DNA of 64,000 nucleotides, taken from an uncultured Chitinophagaceae bacterium (GTDB lineage: Bacteria; Bacteroidota; Bacteroidia; Chitinophagales; Chitinophagaceae). The notes below the pieces were generated by a model, which did no database searches, was not told the DNA's origin, and worked only from the letters and a program-made list of their open reading frames with translations. Shown here piece by piece: positions 2,074 through 35,304 of the stretch (positions are counted from its first letter, which is position 1; each line of letters starts with the position of its first letter). The translations under genes and the position numbers were made by a program. The DNA lies in contig CAZXBE010000001.1 of assembly GCA_964638565.1 (NCBI GenBank), positions 388-64,387 of the forward strand, in the 5' to 3' direction.

Positions 2074-2843
2074 TACAATTTTTCTTTTTTTAAATATAAA
2101 TGAAACGTGTCTCCTCGTAAACCTATGCGCATAGCTTCCAAAGGAATAACTTCCGAGGGGGCAATATTTCCTAAATTCACATTACAGCCTAATAGTTCTA
2201 AGAAGTATAGCTGTTGAGCTTTTTGAGGTGCTTCCCAAATAATACGCTCACCAGGTATTTGTGTTAAGATTTCTTGCACTAAGCCCTCTCTTACTTCGCC
2301 ACTGCCTCTATAAATACCCACATTGCCTGCTTCTCTGGCTTCTGCTATTACATACGATGCTCCGGCATTTAATTCTGCCTTCATCAGCTCTATCCATTTA
2401 TAAGGAGGAATAATATGAGCAGCATCTTTACTACCCACCTCGCTTAATACGGTGCCATATTGTTTTAATTTTTCAATATGACCGCATTTTTCCGTATGCG
2501 GAATGCTTATAGAACCATCACTTACTTCCATATACGTTATATTATACTCTTTGCAAAGGGTTCTATAATCTTCAAATTGATTTCGTATAAGAAATGCCTC
2601 AAACAATGTTCCTCCAAAATATACAGGAATATTAAATGATTGGTAGACTTCTATTTTTTCTCGTAGATTCGGTGTCACAAAAGCTGTTCCAAAACCAAAT
2701 TTTACGATGTCTACATGAGGATGTGATACATTTAAAAAATTTTTTACTTCTTGCACACTTAATCCTTTATCCATAACCATTGTTAAGCCCGACTGACGAG
2801 GTTTTTGACTTCTTTCGGGAATTTGGGAGAGTTTAAAATGCAT
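2073..2843 (-). CDS. phosphosulfolactate synthase (ComA family)
   Basis: 256 aa; ERSQKPRQSGLTMVMDKGL N-terminal signature of the (2R)-phospho-3-sulfolactate synthase family. Stop overlaps the aroE start by 1 nt (TAATG). Confidence 0.75.
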   Translation of the reverse strand: MHFKLSQIPERSQKPRQSGLTMVMDKGLSVQEVKNFLNVSHPHVDIVKFGFGTAFVTPNLREKIEVYQSFNIPVYFGGTLFEAFLIRNQFEDYRTLCKEYNITYMEVSDGSISIPHTEKCGHIEKLKQYGTVLSEVGSKDAAHIIPPYKWIELMKAELNAGASYVIAEAREAGNVGIYRGSGEVREGLVQEILTQIPGERIIWEAPQKAQQLYFLELLGCNVNLGNIAPSEVIPLEAMRIGLRGDTFHLYLKKEKL

Positions 2844-3009
2844 ACTATTTCATTTAAGAGAGCGGTAAAAGTACGGAACAAAATGAATTTTGAATAAAAT
2901 AAGCTATAAGCAGCAAGCTATTATCCACAAGTAAAAAATAATTGCATTTGCTCTAATCTTGTATTTAAAAGCTTGTAGCTTTTTTTTACTTTTGATTCAA
3001 TACGGCATC

Positions 3010-3834
3010 ATGTCTATAATAACGATCACATCCGATATTGGGGAACAAGACTACCTTGTAGGAGCTATAAAAGGGAAACTATTGCAAGTGAATCAGGCAT
3101 TTCAATTGATAGACATTGCACATGCACTACCACCATTTAACTATTCGCAGGCAGCTTACATATGTAGAAATGCTATTCAACATTTTCCTAAACATACGTT
3201 CCATATCGTATGGGTTAGCTTGTTTGATACTCTATCAAAACAACTGCTGCTTTCATACCATAAAGGTCAGTATATTATTTGCGCTGATAATGGACTGCTA
3301 ATGATGATACTAGAAGAAAAGCCGGAACAAGTGATAGGAATTCCCTTGCCTGATACCATTAAAAAAACAGCATTGCATTATAGCGTGGTTATAGGAAAAG
3401 CAATACAACAAATTTGCGACGGTGTTGCATTAGATAAAATTGGAAATGTAGATACATCAATTATAGAAAAAAATCCACTAAAACCTTTGTTTGGTAAAGA
3501 TTGGATAGAAGGACAAATTATTTTTATCGATCATTTTGAAAATGTAATTATCAACATTACAAAGAAAATGTTTGAAAAACATAGAAAAGGTCGTCGATTT
3601 TCTATTGTATTTAAACGAAATGAAGTAATTGATACCATAGCAGAAACGTATATGCATGTAGAAGAAGGAGAGAAACTAGCTATGTTTAATGCTGCTGGGT
3701 ATTTAGAAATTGCTATCAATAAAGGTAATGCTGCCGGGCTTTTTGGATTAAAGGGATACAATGAATTGCAAGCTAAAAATCAATATTTACAGAACCAATT
3801 ATTTTATCAAACAGTAAAAATTTATTTCGAGTAA
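3010..3834 (+). CDS. SAM hydroxide adenosyltransferase / SAM hydrolase family (DUF62)
   Basis: MSIITITSDIGEQDYLVGAIKGKL N-terminus typical of the family. The ORF-track start 2959 is a TTG; the ATG at 3010 gives the conserved N-terminus. Confidence 0.7.
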   Translation: MSIITITSDIGEQDYLVGAIKGKLLQVNQAFQLIDIAHALPPFNYSQAAYICRNAIQHFPKHTFHIVWVSLFDTLSKQLLLSYHKGQYIICADNGLLMMILEEKPEQVIGIPLPDTIKKTALHYSVVIGKAIQQICDGVALDKIGNVDTSIIEKNPLKPLFGKDWIEGQIIFIDHFENVIINITKKMFEKHRKGRRFSIVFKRNEVIDTIAETYMHVEEGEKLAMFNAAGYLEIAINKGNAAGLFGLKGYNELQAKNQYLQNQLFYQTVKIYFE

Positions 3835-24898: not shown

Positions 24899-26182
24899 AT
24901 GAACCACACTCAAAACATAAATACTGTTTCTAATTTCCCCCCTTTGGGGAAGTTAAGGAGCGCTGCCAAAGGAGATAAAGTCATTTGGGCTATTGTTGTG
25001 CTATTGGTTTTAATGTCTTTATTAGTAGTATACAGCGCCACCAGTTCATTGGCCTATAAAATGTATAAGGGCAATACATCCGTTTATTTATTTAAACAAG
25101 TTGCATTTACTATAGTTGGTGTATGCATTATTTATTTTGCCCATCGGGTAAACTATGCGGTATATTCTAAAGTATCCTTAATTCTTTTCTTACTCGCTAT
25201 TCCATTATTGATTTATACGTTATTTTTTGGCACTAATTTAAATGAAGCCAATCGATGGATAAAACTACCAGTAATACATATGACTTTCCAAACATCTGAT
25301 ATGGCTAAGTTGGCATTGTTCATGTATTTATCTAGACAATTAAGCAAAAAGCAGCACGTTATAAAAGATTTTAAAAAAGGGTTTTTACCTGTCATAATTC
25401 CTGTAGCTATTGTGTGCTTGTTAATTGCCCCAGCAAACTTATCTACTGCGTTATTAGTGGGTGCAATTAGTTTATTATTATTATTTATTGGTAGGGTTAG
25501 TGTGAAGCATATTTTACTTACAATAGTTATAGCAGCCATTCCTATTATTATATTAGTAAGTATTGCCATGGCTACATATAAAGGCAATAATAATGCTGCT
25601 ACGCAAAATCAATCTGTTTCAACCAATGTAAAATCAGTTGGCCGTATAGGTACATGGATTAAACGAGTGCAAGATTTTATATACGCTAAAAATGATGCAG
25701 CTCCATATCAAATACAACAAGCAAAAATAGCTATTGCTAAAGGAGGAGTGCTAGGAAAAGGTCCAGGGAACAGCGAACAACGTAATTTTTTACCACATCC
25801 TTACTCAGATTTTATTTATGCTATTATTATTGAAGAATATGGCTTAGCAGGAGCTGCTTTTATTTTATTTATATATATGATTTTTTTATTTAGATGCATT
25901 CAAATTTTTAGAAAATGCCCGTACGCATTTGGCGCATTCTTAGCATTGGGATTAAGTTTTACATTGGTTATCCAAGCTTTAGCTAATATGGCTGTAAATG
26001 TAAATTTATTTCCGGTTACAGGCGTAACACTCCCATTATTAAGTATGGGCGGAAGTTCGTTTATGTTTACTTGTTTAGCTATTGGTATTATATTAAGTGT
26101 ATCTAAAAATGTGGAAGAGGAAAGGAATTTTTCAGCTTCTTCATTGCAAGCAAAAGAAATTGAAAAAATGAATAATGATTGA
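24899..26182 (+). CDS. ftsW: peptidoglycan glycosyltransferase FtsW (SEDS family)
   Basis: KGDKVIWAIVVLL...VYSATSS N-terminal region, multi-TM, PVTGVTLPLLSMGGSS C-terminal SEDS motif. Confidence 0.88.
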   Translation: MNHTQNINTVSNFPPLGKLRSAAKGDKVIWAIVVLLVLMSLLVVYSATSSLAYKMYKGNTSVYLFKQVAFTIVGVCIIYFAHRVNYAVYSKVSLILFLLAIPLLIYTLFFGTNLNEANRWIKLPVIHMTFQTSDMAKLALFMYLSRQLSKKQHVIKDFKKGFLPVIIPVAIVCLLIAPANLSTALLVGAISLLLLFIGRVSVKHILLTIVIAAIPIIILVSIAMATYKGNNNAATQNQSVSTNVKSVGRIGTWIKRVQDFIYAKNDAAPYQIQQAKIAIAKGGVLGKGPGNSEQRNFLPHPYSDFIYAIIIEEYGLAGAAFILFIYMIFLFRCIQIFRKCPYAFGAFLALGLSFTLVIQALANMAVNVNLFPVTGVTLPLLSMGGSSFMFTCLAIGIILSVSKNVEEERNFSASSLQAKEIEKMNND

Positions 26183-27039
26183 TGAAAGAAATTTATTATA
26201 AAACGTTTATGTTAAAGTATTATATACATACCATAGTGATTGTTTTTTGTGCAGGTGCTTGTGGGCAGCAAACAACAAGCTATACAAACAAAAACGTACA
26301 CAAATCCGGAAGTATGGTTTGTACAAGATTTAATTCCCCCAAAGGATTCGTAAGATTAAAATATGAATCGAATAGCTTTGAATCATTTTTGCAAAACTTC
26401 CCATTAAAATCAATAAATGCACAAGTACATTTATACAATGGTGCAGTAAAGAAAAATCAAAATGTACACGAAGCTGTATTAGATATTGATGTTGGAAAGC
26501 AAGATTTACAACAATGTGCAGATGCTGTAATGCGTTTACGAGCAGAATATTTATATAAAACAAAAAACTATACGGACTTGCATTTCAATTTTGTAGATGG
26601 CTTTAAAGCAGAATATGCTAAATGGATACAAGGCAACACCATTGCCTTTAATAATGGAAAGCCCTATTGGAAAACATCTAGTAACGCATCCAATACATAC
26701 GAAAGCTTTAGAAAATTTATGGATATAGTATTTGGTTATGCAGGAACATTATCCTTAGCACAAGAATTAAAACAACAAGAATTGAAAAATATAAAACCAG
26801 GAGATGTATTTATACGTGGTGGAAGTCCTGGCCATGCTGTAATTGTTGTGGATGTTGCTCAAAATAAAAAAGGAAAAAAATGTTTTATGCTTGCACAAAG
26901 CTATATGCCAGCCCAGGAAATTCATATTTTAAAAAATTATAATGATGAAAATATAAGCCCTTGGTATGGAGAAGATTTTGGAGAAATTTTATTAACACCA
27001 GAATATACTTTTAAAAAAGGAGAATTGAAAAAGTTTTGA
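26182..27039 (+). CDS. secreted/lipoprotein, DUF4846-like (family assignment from memory)
   Basis: Signal/lipobox VIVFCAGAC; conserved-looking blocks DLQQCADAVMRLRAEYLY and PGDVFIRGGSPGHAVIVVD. The ATG overlaps the ftsW TGA (TGATG). Confidence 0.45.
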   Translation: MKEIYYKTFMLKYYIHTIVIVFCAGACGQQTTSYTNKNVHKSGSMVCTRFNSPKGFVRLKYESNSFESFLQNFPLKSINAQVHLYNGAVKKNQNVHEAVLDIDVGKQDLQQCADAVMRLRAEYLYKTKNYTDLHFNFVDGFKAEYAKWIQGNTIAFNNGKPYWKTSSNASNTYESFRKFMDIVFGYAGTLSLAQELKQQELKNIKPGDVFIRGGSPGHAVIVVDVAQNKKGKKCFMLAQSYMPAQEIHILKNYNDENISPWYGEDFGEILLTPEYTFKKGELKKF

Positions 27040-31000: not shown

Positions 31001-31420
31001 ATGAAACAATTATTTAGCATTTCCATCGTTTTAACAATACTTATCGCTTGTAACAAAAAAGTCTCCCCTAGTCCTGCAACCATTAAAGACAGTATAGTAG
31101 GTATATGGTCGGGTAGATACGGCACAAACAGAAACAATCCTACTGCAGGGAGTATATGGTGTGCAGAAATAAAAGCTAATGATTCTATTATTGTTTATGA
31201 TCTCGACTCCCTCCCAAATTCTAGTAGTATGTATATCGCAAGAGGGAAATGGTCAATTACAGAAAAGAATCTATTAGCTTCTTGGCAATATGCAAATGGT
31301 GATAAATACAGCTCTAGAGCATCAGTTAGTAATCAAAACAAAAGCATGGATGGAAATTTTTTTTTAACTAATAATTCTACGAGAAAAGATTCATTTTTCT
31401 TCAACAAACTACCAAAATAA
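31001..31420 (+). CDS. small lipoprotein, unknown function (paralog of 4709..5116)
   Basis: Lipobox LTILIAC; IVGIWSGR / DSIIVYD / RGKWSI motifs shared with the ORF at 4709. Confidence 0.55.
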   Translation: MKQLFSISIVLTILIACNKKVSPSPATIKDSIVGIWSGRYGTNRNNPTAGSIWCAEIKANDSIIVYDLDSLPNSSSMYIARGKWSITEKNLLASWQYANGDKYSSRASVSNQNKSMDGNFFLTNNSTRKDSFFFNKLPK

Positions 31421-31432
31421 CTACACCCAATT

Positions 31433-32803
31433 ATGCATAACAACGAAATGCCCATTATTGTAGGGCTCGATATCGGAACTACTAAAATAGCGGCTATTGC
31501 TGGTCGTAAAAACGAATATGGAAAACTAGAGATATTGGGTTTTGGAAAAGCAAGCTCTAGCGGTGTGCAGCATGGTCAAGTATTAAATATTGATCAAACC
31601 ATTAAAGCCATACAACAGGCTTTAGAAAACTGTTATGCCTCCAACCCAAACCTTGAAATAAAAGAAGTATATGTAGGTATTGCAGGCCATCATATTAAAA
31701 GCTTACAAACCCGTGGAGATATAGTTAGACAAAACACTGAAGAAGAAATTTGCCAGTTAGAAATTGATCAATTAATTAATGATCAATACAAAACCTATAT
31801 CCCTGCAGGAGATCAAATTATTGATGTTATTGCACAAGAATTTACTGTTGATAATTTTCAAAACATTCCAAACCCTATTGGATACAGCGGTGTAAAAGTG
31901 GGCGCTAACTTTCACATCATCACTGGCGATAGAAATGCTATTCGCAATATTAACCGTGCAGTTGAAAAAAGTGGCTTACACACCAAAGATTTAGTATTAC
32001 AACCTTTAGCATCTGCCGCAGCAGTAATGTGCGAACATGATATGGAAGCAGGTGTTGCTATTGTAGATATTGGTGGTGGAACATCTGATTTAGCCGTATT
32101 CTATGAAGGTATATTAAAACATACGGCCGTTATTCCTTTTGGTGGAGAAAATATTACCAACGATATTAAAAATGGTTTAGGCGTATTAAAAACACAAGCA
32201 GAACAAATGAAGGTGCAATTTGGTAGTGCTTTATCCGATGAAGCAAAAGCAAATGCATTTATTACTATACCGGGTTTACGTGGTTTACCAGCTAAAGAAA
32301 TTAGTGCAAAAAATTTATCTCATATCATACAAGCTCGTATGAGTGAAATTTTAGATTTTGTAAGCTATCATTTAAAACAAGTAGGACTGGATAATAAAAT
32401 GTTGAATGGAGGCATTGTACTTACTGGTGGAGGAGCACAACTAAAACACCTTATACAATTAACCGAATATGCAACGGGTTTAAATGCACGTATTGGTTAT
32501 CCGAATGAACACTTAGCTTCTGGGCATATTGAAGAACTAGCAAAACCGGTGTATGCAACTTGTATTGGTTTAATATTGAAAGGATACAGCGATTATGAAC
32601 ACAATCGAAAAGCATTTGAAAAAAACCATATCACATTAGATGTGCCAGAAGGCTTAAAAAAACTTGTAGAAAATAATGCTGAAACTGAACGAAGAACTAT
32701 TGCAGACCGTACTCGTAATAAAAAAGGAGTAAAAGATTTTTGGGGTAAATTTAAAGACGGCATTGTGGATTTATTTAAAGAAGAAGAGGATGTGAAGTTG
32801 TAA
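31433..32803 (+). CDS. ftsA: cell division protein FtsA
   Basis: Actin-fold motifs VGLDIGTTKI and VDIGGGTSD; C-terminal amphipathic tail. Confidence 0.92.
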   Translation: MHNNEMPIIVGLDIGTTKIAAIAGRKNEYGKLEILGFGKASSSGVQHGQVLNIDQTIKAIQQALENCYASNPNLEIKEVYVGIAGHHIKSLQTRGDIVRQNTEEEICQLEIDQLINDQYKTYIPAGDQIIDVIAQEFTVDNFQNIPNPIGYSGVKVGANFHIITGDRNAIRNINRAVEKSGLHTKDLVLQPLASAAAVMCEHDMEAGVAIVDIGGGTSDLAVFYEGILKHTAVIPFGGENITNDIKNGLGVLKTQAEQMKVQFGSALSDEAKANAFITIPGLRGLPAKEISAKNLSHIIQARMSEILDFVSYHLKQVGLDNKMLNGGIVLTGGGAQLKHLIQLTEYATGLNARIGYPNEHLASGHIEELAKPVYATCIGLILKGYSDYEHNRKAFEKNHITLDVPEGLKKLVENNAETERRTIADRTRNKKGVKDFWGKFKDGIVDLFKEEEDVKL

Positions 32804-32843
32804 TTAGAAATTTTAAATTAGGAATTAGAAATGACCAAAGCTC

Positions 32844-32865
32844 TGGTTCGTGTCCCCACGAACCA
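32844..32865. repeat. REP-like GC-rich hairpin (left of RAYT)
   Basis: tGGTTCGTG-TCCC-CACGAACCa; the 8-bp core stem is identical to the hairpin at 33453-33476. Ends 19 nt before the RAYT ATG. Confidence 0.7.
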
Positions 32866-32884
32866 ACAATAAGATGATATAAAA

Positions 32885-33445
32885 ATGAATGAAGCATTAT
32901 TTACATATAAAAGAAAATCGCATATTGAAATAGGTGAAATATATTTTTGGACAGCCACTATTAATCAATGGCAACAACTGTTACGGGAAGAAGCATATAA
33001 AAAAGTTATTATAAACTCTTTAGAATATTTGAGCAATGCAGAAAAAGTAAATGTGTTTGCATTTGTCATCATGCCCAATCATATTCATTTAATATGGAGG
33101 ATTAATGCAATGAATGGTAAAGAACAATCACAACATTCGTTTTTAAAAAACACGGCACATGAATTTAAAAAAATGTTGTGTAGTGATGATGAAAACAAAT
33201 TGAAAACGTATGCAGTAGTAGCTGATAACAAAAGGTATGAATTTTGGCAAAGAGATGCATTAGCCATTCCTTTGTACACAAAAAATATTGCCTTGCAAAA
33301 ATTAAATTATATCCATAACAATCCACTGGCAGAGCGTTGGCAGTTAGCCAAAGATCCATGTGCATATGCATACTCATCAGCAAAATATTATGAAATGGAT
33401 ATAAAAGAGTATACTTTTTTAAAAGATTTAAGAGATGAATTTTAA
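32885..33445 (+). CDS. REP-associated tyrosine transposase (RAYT, Y1/HUH IS200-like transposase family)
   Basis: 186 aa; HUH motif in FVIMPNHIHLIW; C-terminal catalytic Tyr context LNYIHNNPL. Single gene without tnpB, bracketed by inverted hairpins. Confidence 0.8.
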   Translation: MNEALFTYKRKSHIEIGEIYFWTATINQWQQLLREEAYKKVIINSLEYLSNAEKVNVFAFVIMPNHIHLIWRINAMNGKEQSQHSFLKNTAHEFKKMLCSDDENKLKTYAVVADNKRYEFWQRDALAIPLYTKNIALQKLNYIHNNPLAERWQLAKDPCAYAYSSAKYYEMDIKEYTFLKDLRDEF

Positions 33446-33452
33446 AATACAA

Positions 33453-33476
33453 TTGGTTCGTGAGGACACGAACCAA
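33453..33476. repeat. REP-like GC-rich hairpin (right of RAYT, inverted relative to the left copy)
   Basis: ttGGTTCGTG-AGGA-CACGAACCaa. The reverse complement of the left copy has loop GGGA, so the two are inverted copies with one loop difference. Starts 7 nt after the RAYT stop. Confidence 0.7.
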
Positions 33477-33624
33477 GTCAATAGCAAGGATTTGAACTCA
33501 TCAAAAATATAGCTTAAGTGATGCAAATAATTATTTACATAGTAAATATACTTAGCATGAATAATACTCATAATTTTAATTACTAATTCTCCTTTTACTA
33601 ATAACTCCATTAAATTCTCTCATT

Positions 33625-35304
33625 ATGATTCATTTCGATTTACCCAAACAACAATCCTCCATCATAAAAGTAATTGGTGTAGGTGGTGGCGGCAGCAATG
33701 CTGTCAACTTCATGTTTAGTGATAATATTGACGGCGTTGATTTTATTATTTGTAATACTGATGCGCAAGCCCTTGCCCAAAGCCCTGTGCCTAATAAAAT
33801 TCAGTTAGGGCCACACTTAACACAAGGTTTAGGCGCCGGCGCCAATCCTGAAATTGGTAAACAAGCCACCGAAGAATCATTAGATGAGATAAAAAGAATT
33901 TTAGAAGTCAATACCAAAATGGCGTTTATTACTGCAGGTATGGGCGGTGGCACAGGCACGGGCGGAGCGCCCATTATGGCACAAATTTGCCGCGACTTAG
34001 GTATTTTAACTGTAGGCATTGTTACCACTCCCTTTGGCTTTGAAGGCCCTAAACGCCATGCACAAGCAGAAGCGGGAATCAATATCTTAAAAGAATATGT
34101 AGATACTTTATTAGTTATTAGTAATGATAAATTACGAGTACAATTTGGTAACCTCAAAATGAAAGAGGCTTTTTCGAAAGCAGATAATGTATTAGCTACA
34201 GCCGCAAAATGTATTACCGATGTAATTAGTAGTCAAGGACAAATTAATGTAGACTTTGCCGATGTATGCACTGTAATGCGCAATGGTGGAGTAGCCATTT
34301 TAGGTAGCGCTGCTATAAGTGGCGAAAACCGTGCACATCGTGCTATTGAAGAAGCTTTAAACTCTCCATTACTAAACGACAATGATATTCGGGGCGCTCG
34401 TTGGATATTAATTAACATTAATTCTGCCGAAGGCGAACATGAGTTTACAATGGATGAAGTAGATATTATCCAAAGTTATTTACGTAATCAGGCAGGTGAA
34501 GATACCGATGTAATATTGGGCATGGGGTATGATAATAATTTAGAAGATAAAATTAGTATAACCCTTGTTGCAACAGGATTTCAATATAAAGACCCCTTTG
34601 CAAAAAAATTAACCCAAACAGTAGTTAAAGATAAAAAAGAGGAAAAAATAGTAATGACTTTGGGCATAGAAGGAGAAGAAAAAAAATTATATAATCAATC
34701 TACACTACCTTTTGTTGAAAAAAATAAGGAAGAAACTTTGGAAACGAAAATAGTTTCCTTTATTTCCGAACAGAAACAACATGTAACGGATGCTACAGAC
34801 GAACAGAAGCCAATAAAAATGATTATAGAAGAAGAGATAGATCATCAGGCTTCCATTACTTCTGGAGGCTATCTTACACGTCCTGTTCAAATTTATGAAG
34901 AAGTGAAGAGGCAGGAAGATAAAATAGTACAACCTGTTAAAGAAGAAATGCCTTCCATAGAAATGACAATGGTTATTAAAGAAGACGTAGAAGTAAACCA
35001 AACGACTACAACCATTCAAGTAGTACCAGAAGAAATTATTATTAATGATGAAATAGAAGAACAAAAAAGAAAAGCTGCTGAACGCATTCAAAAACTTCGA
35101 AACTTATCATTCAATATTAATGGCAACGATCCAAACAATGAGTTTGAAACGGTTCCAGCATACATTCGTAAAAACTTAGAGTTATATAATACTACTAATA
35201 GTGTAGAAAATTTTTACAGTAATTATCAAGTTAAAACAGATGAAAACAATCAAACACAAATTAGCACATTGAATTCTTTTTTAGATGGAAAAAAGCCAGA
35301 TTAA
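33625..35304 (+). CDS. ftsZ: cell division GTPase FtsZ with long E/K/I-rich C-terminal linker
   Basis: IKVIGVGGGGSNAVN and tubulin signature GMGGGTGTGGAP; 559 aa. Confidence 0.95.
   Translation: MIHFDLPKQQSSIIKVIGVGGGGSNAVNFMFSDNIDGVDFIICNTDAQALAQSPVPNKIQLGPHLTQGLGAGANPEIGKQATEESLDEIKRILEVNTKMAFITAGMGGGTGTGGAPIMAQICRDLGILTVGIVTTPFGFEGPKRHAQAEAGINILKEYVDTLLVISNDKLRVQFGNLKMKEAFSKADNVLATAAKCITDVISSQGQINVDFADVCTVMRNGGVAILGSAAISGENRAHRAIEEALNSPLLNDNDIRGARWILININSAEGEHEFTMDEVDIIQSYLRNQAGEDTDVILGMGYDNNLEDKISITLVATGFQYKDPFAKKLTQTVVKDKKEEKIVMTLGIEGEEKKLYNQSTLPFVEKNKEETLETKIVSFISEQKQHVTDATDEQKPIKMIIEEEIDHQASITSGGYLTRPVQIYEEVKRQEDKIVQPVKEEMPSIEMTMVIKEDVEVNQTTTTIQVVPEEIIINDEIEEQKRKAAERIQKLRNLSFNINGNDPNNEFETVPAYIRKNLELYNTTNSVENFYSNYQVKTDENNQTQISTLNSFLDGKKPD

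Follow-up and report, generated by a model that had tools for sequence, protein, structure and literature searches.

A compact RAYT gene with flanking hairpins, very probably a REPtron, in the ftsA-ftsZ junction of an uncultured Chitinophagaceae bacterium

Introduction

RAYTs (REP-associated tyrosine transposases, also called TnpAREP, where REP denotes a repetitive extragenic palindrome) are a textbook case of the domesticated bacterial transposase, and to our knowledge experiments on them have been confined to the proteobacterial groups 2 and 3. Here we describe a RAYT-type gene, bracketed by two inverted hairpins, that occupies the junction between the cell division genes ftsA and ftsZ in a 64-kb stretch of DNA from an uncultured Chitinophagaceae bacterium (‘the window’; all coordinates and strands are given relative to it).

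TnpAREP (YafM/RayT) of E. coli is the best match to the window RAYT by both sequence profile and fold, at only ∼16% identity. Its gene likewise lies between a REP and an inverted REP (iREP), and the protein is presumed to recognize hairpins in single-stranded DNA (ssDNA), cleave them and transfer the strand. E. coli REPs are long and bulged, and are preceded by a GTAG tetranucleotide that is essential for activity (PMC8266576). TnpAREP-like proteins were divided into subclasses by Quentin et al. 2018 (PMC6006769), of which subclass 2.6 equals RAYT group 5 of Bertels et al. 2017 (PMC5581495). The members of subclass 2.6 (such as Cytophaga hutchinsonii ABG60443 and Aequorivita sublithincola AFL81591) come mostly from Bacteroidetes, have a mean length of 179 aa, contain NH[LIV]H, WQ and YIH[QN]NP motifs and an SS tail motif, and possess extra residues between helix C and strand 4; their hairpins lack GTAG, flank the gene and have further copies in the genome (PMC6006769). 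The IS200/IS605 TnpA transposases (IS200, IS608 and ISDra2) share the same Y1 HUH fold, and their coding sequences are also bordered by hairpins with guide-like nucleotides on the 5′ side. These insertion sequences (IS) have both ends on one strand, occur as multiple near-identical elements per genome and often include tnpB.

We conclude that positions 32840–33479 very probably represent a compact (∼640 bp) ‘REPtron’, comprising a subclass 2.6 TnpAREP/RAYT gene with its cognate REP on the left and an iREP on the right, which would act as its homology to TnpAREP implies and which entered the ftsA-ftsZ spacer in an ancestor of the lineage. Elements of this kind are already known and published, Bacteroidetes included, and only the location is unusual: a literature search for a transposase between ftsA and ftsZ in Bacteroidetes returned nothing, and a position in the dcw (division and cell wall) cluster is not described in the literature searched. 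What is new here is the consensus of this REP (GCCnT as the foot, TCYY as the loop), the 90% bias of its copies toward extragenic DNA and the breadth of the family over Chitinophagales, Sphingobacteriales and Cytophagales. Also new are compensatory stem variants and the arrival of the entire module at the ftsA-ftsZ junction, an event that can be dated.

Results

A single gene and two inverted hairpins fill the spacer

The ftsA-ftsZ spacer is 821 bp in length and contains a single intact open reading frame (ORF), at 32885–33445. The unit consists of the following features:

32840–32844, plus strand: 5′ foot (tag) of the left REP, GCTCT, with T instead of C at position −3 of the consensus GCCnT
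32844–32865, plus strand: left REP hairpin, TGGTTCGTG-TCCC-CACGAACCA, with a 9-bp stem and 4-nt loop, at distances of 40 nt from the ftsA stop and 19 nt from the RAYT ATG
32885–33445, plus strand: gene for a RAYT/TnpAREP-type Y1 HUH endonuclease of 186 aa, with HUH motif H66-I-H68, W121-Q122, catalytic tyrosine Y142 in YIHNNP and tail motif S163-S164
33453–33476, minus strand: right inverted REP (iREP), top strand TTGGTTCGTG-AGGA-CACGAACCAA, with a 10-bp stem and minus-strand loop TCCT, 7 nt past the RAYT stop
33475–33479, minus strand: 5′ foot of the right iREP, GACTT on the minus strand, with A at position −4 (consensus GCCnT; GCCTT in the sister species)

An earlier note on this DNA, made from the sequence alone, had described a 186-aa ORF with an HUH motif (PNHIHLIW) and YIHNNP in the 821-bp spacer, the lack of a tnpB partner, and hairpins at 19 and 7 nt from the gene with an identical 8-bp stem, inverted orientation and one loop change. 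That description proved accurate in all checkable details: coordinates and hairpin core agree, both protein motifs are present (and invariant in 31 homologues), and no tnpB-like gene was found beside the window RAYT or beside any homologue examined. The window contains one copy of the RAYT gene.

Both hairpins display the same 8-bp core, GGTTCGTG-N4-CACGAACC, in inverted orientation with loops TCCC and AGGA. Across 23-nt arms that are 96% complementary, the right loop corresponds to the reverse complement of the left except for one base (TCCT vs TCCC); the asymmetry of the loops therefore identifies the right hairpin as a reverse complement of the left with a single loop base changed. Modeled as ssDNA, both hairpins fold stably on either strand (−9.6 to −11.3 kcal/mol, with z of about −6 to −7.5 relative to shuffles); the left folds at −9.6 kcal/mol (z −7.5) and the right at −11.3 (plus) and −10.9 (minus) kcal/mol. 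A search with the pattern GGTTCGTGNNNNCACGAACC at up to 2 mismatches returned the two flanking sites only in 64 kb, where shuffles predict 0.00. The canonical GT[AG]G tetranucleotide was not found at the 5′ foot of the hairpin, which instead follows GCCnT, and the foot points outward, away from the gene, on both sides in the window and at all RAYT loci. A scan of the window for other families of GC-rich hairpins found none that were repeated. Rfam (at gathering thresholds) and a tRNA scan reported nothing in or near the locus, indicating that the hairpins do not belong to a known RNA family.

The protein resembles TnpAREP in sequence profile and predicted fold

The NCBIfam model REP_Tyr_transpos (NF047646) aligned to the protein over its full length (model positions 5–146 of 146) with an E-value of 1.7e-19. 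A protein database contained 1938 relatives, the best 120 of which are nearly all 181–190 aa long and 64–74% identical to the window RAYT, with a single exception at 94%; those with names derive from Chitinophagaceae, Ginsengibacter and Flammeovirgaceae, and JGI labels relatives as ‘REP element-mobilizing transposase RayT’ or ‘putative transposase’. Residues N65, H66 and H68 (HUH), W121, Y142, H144, N146 and P147 (YIHNNP) and S164 do not vary across 31 aligned homologues.

A single-sequence search of the PDB gave a weak match only (E 0.25). When the profile of the 31 homologues was used, the sole significant match was E. coli TnpAREP (4ER8; E 1.5e-4), with the HUH segments aligned and Y142 placed on the tyrosine of dYIyiNP. 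The AlphaFold model (pLDDT 90.1) returned the same protein as its top Foldseek match (4ER8_A; E 2.7e-8 over 161 columns, TM 0.58/0.65, ∼16% identity), followed by the IS608, ISDra2 and IS200 transposases at E 7e-6 or worse. The fold, as modeled, is thus closer to TnpAREP than to the TnpA of IS200/IS605. The proposal that the gene encodes a RAYT is borne out by the full-length NF047646 similarity, by the profile and predicted fold matches to 4ER8, by the same gene-hairpin layout in homologues, by the scatter of the hairpin through extragenic DNA of other Bacteroidota and, as to the insertion, by the lack of the unit in 76 related ftsA-ftsZ spacers.

Judged by its motifs, its length and its non-GTAG hairpins, the window RAYT appears to fit subclass 2.6 (RAYT group 5): it contains NHIH, WQ, YIHNNP and SS, measures 186 aa (against a mean of 179), comes from Bacteroidota (as the names of its homologues and the hosts of the hairpin also indicate) and is flanked by short, perfect hairpins without GTAG. 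The motifs of class 1.1, DH[VI]H and Y[IV]ENQ, are absent (NHIH and YIHNNP stand in those places). The extra residues between helix C and strand 4, which distinguish subclass 2.6 from E. coli TnpAREP, are ascribed to the window protein from the published subclass feature. The REP described here differs from that of E. coli in having a perfect 8–10 bp stem and a GCCnT foot in place of a long, bulged stem and GTAG. REPs in the supplementary table for subclass 2.6 share the stem length of the window hairpin, both in C. hutchinsonii (GGTCTGTG...CACAGACC) and in A. sublithincola (GCTAG-CGCGAGCG-TCC-CGCTCGTG); a likeness of the G-C foot and the TCY loop is seen only in the A. sublithincola entries. 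The GGTCTGTG variant listed for C. hutchinsonii also occurs beside GGTTCGTG copies in loci fetched in the present analysis. The exact hairpin, GGTTCGTG/CACGAACC, is absent from the supplementary REP table of PMC6006769, and a full-text literature search for its sequence returned unrelated primers only.

Homologous genes carry the same hairpin in unrelated neighborhoods

We inspected homologues (46–94% identical to the window RAYT) in their own contigs, in unrelated gene neighborhoods. The GGTTCGTG hairpin is present on both sides, in inverted orientation, in Ginsengibacter hankyongi (locus L005), in a Flammeovirgaceae bacterium (L006–L009) and at loci L033, L078 and L084, the last with a protein merely 46% identical. 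Two further loci (L013 and L121) have the hairpin upstream only, the downstream hairpin of L037 contains a mismatch, and for L003 the hairpin is known downstream only. Upstream, the distance to the ATG is generally ∼19–21 nt, with 58 nt in L005; downstream, the hairpin follows the stop by 4–40 nt. At L010, where the protein is 68% identical, both sides carry the variant GGTGCGTG/CACGCACC, which represents a compensatory double change.

The surroundings of the module include dnaE2/imuB in L006, the vicinity of an integrase fragment in L005 and unrelated genes in L010, and these differing neighbors indicate that genomic position is not conserved across the RAYT family. An identical protein is always found in the same context (the window protein occurs on 5 contigs, and a second protein, P0066, on 10), and there is consequently no sign of recent movement within a species.

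Two other features were seen at these loci. Distant RAYT paralogues (30–40% identical) lie no more than 0.4–2 kb from the main gene at L005 (L005b, 1073–1633) and L010 (L010b, 2768–3286), each between palindromes of its own that differ from GGTTCGTG (GCAACGTCTCCCC..GGGGACGTTGC in L005 and GGCGGGTGTT..AACACCCGCC in L010). In L006 (5564–5750) and L033 (1741–1880), one or two tandem duplicates of the last 30–35 RAYT codons, together with the right hairpin, lie downstream of the gene.

The hairpin is a dispersed REP family in Bacteroidota

A scan of reference genomes (one genome per species, using 16 specified bases) identified at least 120 stretches with the hairpin, almost all of them in Bacteroidota (Pedobacter, Chitinophagaceae, Cyclobacteriaceae, Cytophagales and Terrimonas), with at least 3–6 copies in several genomes; all copies per genome are lower bounds. 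Among the matches listed, the loop is TCYY or RRGA in ∼100 of ∼150 hairpins (∼3% expected), and a RAYT homologue is present in only ∼7 stretches. The 97 loop-oriented hairpins among those matches define a foot of G (71%), C (87%), C (78%), n and T (67%), with an A after the stem. The family form is therefore a GCCnT foot, an 8–10 bp stem (GGTTCGTG/CACGAACC) and a TCYY loop, corresponding to the degenerate pattern GCCNT-GGNNNGTG-TCYY-CACNNNCC. Hairpins among the matches listed fall within stop-to-stop ORFs of at least 150 aa in 10% of cases, vs 76% for random positions in the same DNA.

In the same matches, the hairpins occur alone, as inverted doublets with a short spacer (feet outward in L023, L093, L096 and L115; feet inward in L091 and L126) and as tandem arrays (L027, L095, L101 and L114). 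Eleven alternative stems (including GGTCTGTG, GGTACGTG and GGCGCGTG) are fully paired below a conserved GTG-TCYY-CAC top, demonstrating that the pairing of the stem is under selection. The hairpin thus behaves as a REP/BIME/REPIN family that is tied to the RAYT protein.

We also observed one or two tandem 5′ half-hairpins with a foot (GCCTTGGTTCGTGTCYY...) upstream of a complete hairpin, at L074 (∼3310–3375) and L100 (∼3265–3330) and also in L025, L051, L061 and L068. Such copies could arise from abortive RAYT cleavage and rejoining, or from slippage.

These distributions bear on whether the unit might instead be an autonomous IS200-type insertion sequence with tnpA as its only gene, one that moves as a whole and has the hairpins as its ends rather than as genomic REPs. 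The unit is compact (640 bp), bounded by hairpins, found in unrelated neighborhoods of different genomes and present in the window while absent from 76 related ftsA-ftsZ spacers (see below), and IS200/IS605 transposases are the next-best structural matches after TnpAREP. The hairpins, however, are inverted, whereas both ends of an IS200/IS605 element are processed on a single strand (PMC8266576); NHIH and YIHNNP are motifs of class 2, class 1.1 having DH[VI]H and Y[IV]ENQ instead; TnpAREP is the best fold match; most hairpins among the matches listed stand alone or form short doublets, in either case with no gene close by; and each exact protein was seen at one locus only, in the same context throughout. 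With inverted hairpins, one locus seen per organism, no tnpB and class 2 motifs, the window unit is very unlikely to be an element of this type.

Weighing the assignment

Several observations weigh against the assignment of the locus to a subclass 2.6 REPtron. The NF047646 match scores 70.2 bits, under the curated cut-off of 80 bits, and Pfam Y1_Tnp (PF01797) matches weakly (E 1.4e-3; 19.1 vs a gathering cut-off of 23). The model search proposed in the earlier note gave a significant, full-length match to NF047646, with scores below the curated cut-offs of both models, which by our own assessment were built mainly on proteobacterial members. No third copy of the hairpin exists in the 64-kb window, even at up to 2 mismatches, so that dispersal of the REP is shown in other genomes only. 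Both feet in the window are one base off the consensus (GCTCT and GACTT), and the A at position −4 of the right foot occurs in 2 of 97 copies; if the foot guides cleavage as GTAG does, one might speculate that the two flanking copies are poor substrates. The placement in subclass 2.6 is a comparison with a published table (Table 1 of PMC6006769) and not the product of its authors’ HMMs (hidden Markov models) or tree; the proposed placement of the protein in a RAYT group was thus achieved by motifs, length and hairpins.

The scores below curated cut-offs and the lack of extra hairpins in the window are also what would be expected if the ORF and palindromes were a chance association or the functionless remnant of a dead element. 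Set against this are zero hairpin matches expected by chance, 1938 homologues that are mostly ∼186 aa long, an architecture conserved across orders, purifying selection on the gene and a confidently predicted fold, and we regard this explanation as barely credible. A purely chance association was excluded, as the shuffles never gave the hairpin pattern.

A REPtron of subclass 2.6 accordingly remains our preferred interpretation, and its activity can be outlined by analogy with TnpAREP of E. coli, S. maltophilia and Marinomonas (PMC8266576). The RAYT would bind the folded, single-stranded REP hairpin (exposed mainly during replication) and not the iREP, with the nucleotides of the 5′ foot positioning the cleavage. 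Residues H66 and H68 would hold a metal ion while Y142 cuts near the hairpin to form a 5′-phosphotyrosine link, and rejoining or transfer of the strand might then generate, spread or rearrange REP copies in intergenic DNA over evolutionary time. The unit would have entered the ftsA-ftsZ spacer in an ancestor of the lineage, and purifying selection would since have preserved it there, oriented like the dcw operon.

As a representative of the Bacteroidota RAYT group, which has received little study, the locus is clean and minimal, with a perfect short hairpin, a GCCnT foot, a TCYY loop and natural compensatory stem variants, features that are suited to testing how such enzymes recognize DNA. Annotation pipelines would call the protein ‘hypothetical’ or ‘transposase’, because it falls below curated HMM cut-offs. 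For specialists it is a tidy example rather than a surprise, and the practical consequence is small.

Insertion of the unit into the ftsA-ftsZ junction

The earlier note had proposed comparing ftsA-ftsZ spacers in relatives. Among 80 metagenomic loci with an FtsA 82–85% identical to that of the window, 76 retain both ftsA and ftsZ; their spacers are indeed short (10–311 bp, median ∼83), and none of the 76 contains a RAYT gene, indicating that the insertion is lineage-specific. The exact boundaries of the insertion were not recovered, as the window flanks do not align with these nearest empty sites.

The sole other organism with the unit at ftsA-ftsZ encodes a 94%-identical protein (P0001; loci L003 and L004, assembly GCA_035397785.1, ‘Chitinophagaceae bacterium’). 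In this sister species the unit lies directly upstream of ftsZ, which comes 113 nt further on (114 nt when the stop codon is counted); its right hairpin matches that of the window exactly, as do the 7 nt preceding the hairpin (L003). Between the two species the RAYT gene displays a dS (synonymous divergence) of 0.29 (24 changes over 100 sites) and a dN (nonsynonymous divergence) of 0.024, and is therefore under purifying selection (dN/dS 0.085). The shared site, together with this ratio, indicates that the unit entered the spacer before the two species split and has been kept since; a 640-bp unit with two stable hairpins has thus long been tolerated between ftsA and ftsZ. This provides a dated insertion event for a type of gene that is said to show no mobility.

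For the N-terminal two-thirds of ftsZ (33625–34614), the same comparison gives a dS of 0.55 and a dN of 0.04. The lower dS of the RAYT gene could possibly reflect sampling, extra constraint or a more recent exchange of the module. A recent foreign origin was considered and rejected, since the G+C content of the unit (30.8%; 29.6% for the RAYT gene) is close to that of the AT-rich window (32.8%). Both sister contigs, L003 and L004, which are two independent assemblies, start 12 nt ahead of the RAYT start codon, a point only just within the left hairpin expected there; the pattern would fit assemblies interrupted by a hairpin that is repeated in the sister genome, without proving it.

Whether the module moves as a unit bears on a statement in a 2021 paper on TnpAREP, ‘no evidence of tnpAREP mobility’ (PMC8266576). 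The tight geometry that recurs in unrelated neighborhoods, a hairpin that is almost invariant while the protein diverges to 46–70% identity across three orders, and the absence of the unit from 76 related ftsA-ftsZ spacers all point to such movement, and we tentatively raise the possibility, which we hold to be doubtful, that in the course of Bacteroidota evolution the whole REP-tnpAREP-iREP module, rather than its hairpins alone, moved or was transferred in one piece, landing in the most conserved operon junction of the division cluster. If true, this would be evidence for REPtron mobility, which according to PMC8266576 has not been observed. The locus touches on that question but does not settle it.

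Longer spacers among related Chitinophagaceae are filled with other GC-rich palindromic repeats (L147, 4374–4564; L154, 4371–4565; L171, 1591–1903; L189, 4377–4525), including three tandem copies of a ∼90-nt unit in L171. Perfect GC-rich hairpins number 13 in 5.7 kb of related spacers (2.3 per kb) vs 0.16 per kb in adjacent coding DNA. By this comparison, which is with adjacent coding DNA only, the junction seems to be permissive for palindromic elements, or to use them.

Probable transcription of ftsZ across the unit

The genes that border the spacer, and the leader that separates the unit from ftsZ, are as follows:

31433–32803, plus strand: ftsA, upstream neighbor, co-oriented with RAYT; Pfam SHS2_FTSA and FtsA
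33477–33624, plus strand: AT-rich leader of 148 nt from the unit to the ftsZ ATG, aligned with that of the sister species (L003)
33625–35304, plus strand: ftsZ, downstream neighbor, co-oriented with RAYT; Pfam Tubulin and FtsZ_C

No T-run follows either hairpin on the plus strand, and the hairpins do not look like intrinsic terminators on the sense strand; the right hairpin is terminator-like for antisense transcripts only. A scan for sigma-70 promoters returned fewer sites than shuffles and nothing useful, a result that cannot prove the absence of a promoter. A regular expression for Bacteroidetes-type promoters (TTG-N17-23-TAnnTTTG, at most 1 mismatch) found none in 33477–33624, although the low power of this pattern means that absence is not proven; its only candidates were weak and lie inside ftsA and the RAYT gene. 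In several relatives the ftsA-ftsZ spacer is merely 10–11 nt, too short for a promoter, which implies that ftsZ transcription in this family starts within or upstream of ftsA. We believe that read-through, in which transcripts from upstream promoters continue over the RAYT gene into ftsZ, is the most likely and most economical arrangement, and we favor it over a new promoter. If so, the RAYT gene and the division genes would share a transcript. On the doubtful reading of a module that moves in one piece, expression of the nuclease along with ftsA and ftsZ would then couple REP processing to the program of division and replication.

In a different reading, the hairpins serve mainly the host, determining the FtsA:FtsZ ratio as mRNA stabilizers, processing sites or attenuators of the ftsA-ftsZ transcript, and the RAYT is a passenger, whether inactive or incidental. 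An influence of REPs on the stability of mRNA is known (PMC8266576), related spacers often hold unrelated GC-rich palindromes at the densities given above, and the right hairpin with the 7 nt before it is identical in the sister species. The enrichment of palindromes, however, is general to intergenic DNA, the hairpins accompany RAYT at loci unrelated to cell division, and a gene that is intact, with invariant catalytic residues and a dN/dS of 0.085, is not a decaying passenger. We consider this reading quite improbable; a secondary effect of the hairpins on the ftsA-ftsZ mRNA may nonetheless accompany a REPtron.

Two minor features lie in or across the leader. About 66 nt at 33494–33590, in two blocks, are absent from the sister species and include an AT-rich palindrome, TATTTACATAGTAAATA, at 33532–33548. 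A 60-aa antisense ORF on the minus strand (33428–33610), which appears in public ENA and JGI gene calls, overlaps the last part of the RAYT gene as well as the right hairpin; it has no Pfam match and is probably spurious.

Neighboring genes

The dcw cluster surrounding the RAYT gene is a typical Bacteroidota set, with mraY, murD, ftsW, murG, murC, ftsQ, ftsA and ftsZ all on the plus strand. Between ftsQ and ftsA lies a 139-aa ORF (31001–31420) with a lipoprotein-like signal (MKQLFSISIVLTILIAC...) and no Pfam match on record. It left no trace by tblastn in 72 related loci containing ftsQ, and it is a second lineage-specific insertion in the cluster. A gene of the DUF4846 family is also located within the cluster, at 26179–27039 between ftsW and murG (L001, 3298–4155).

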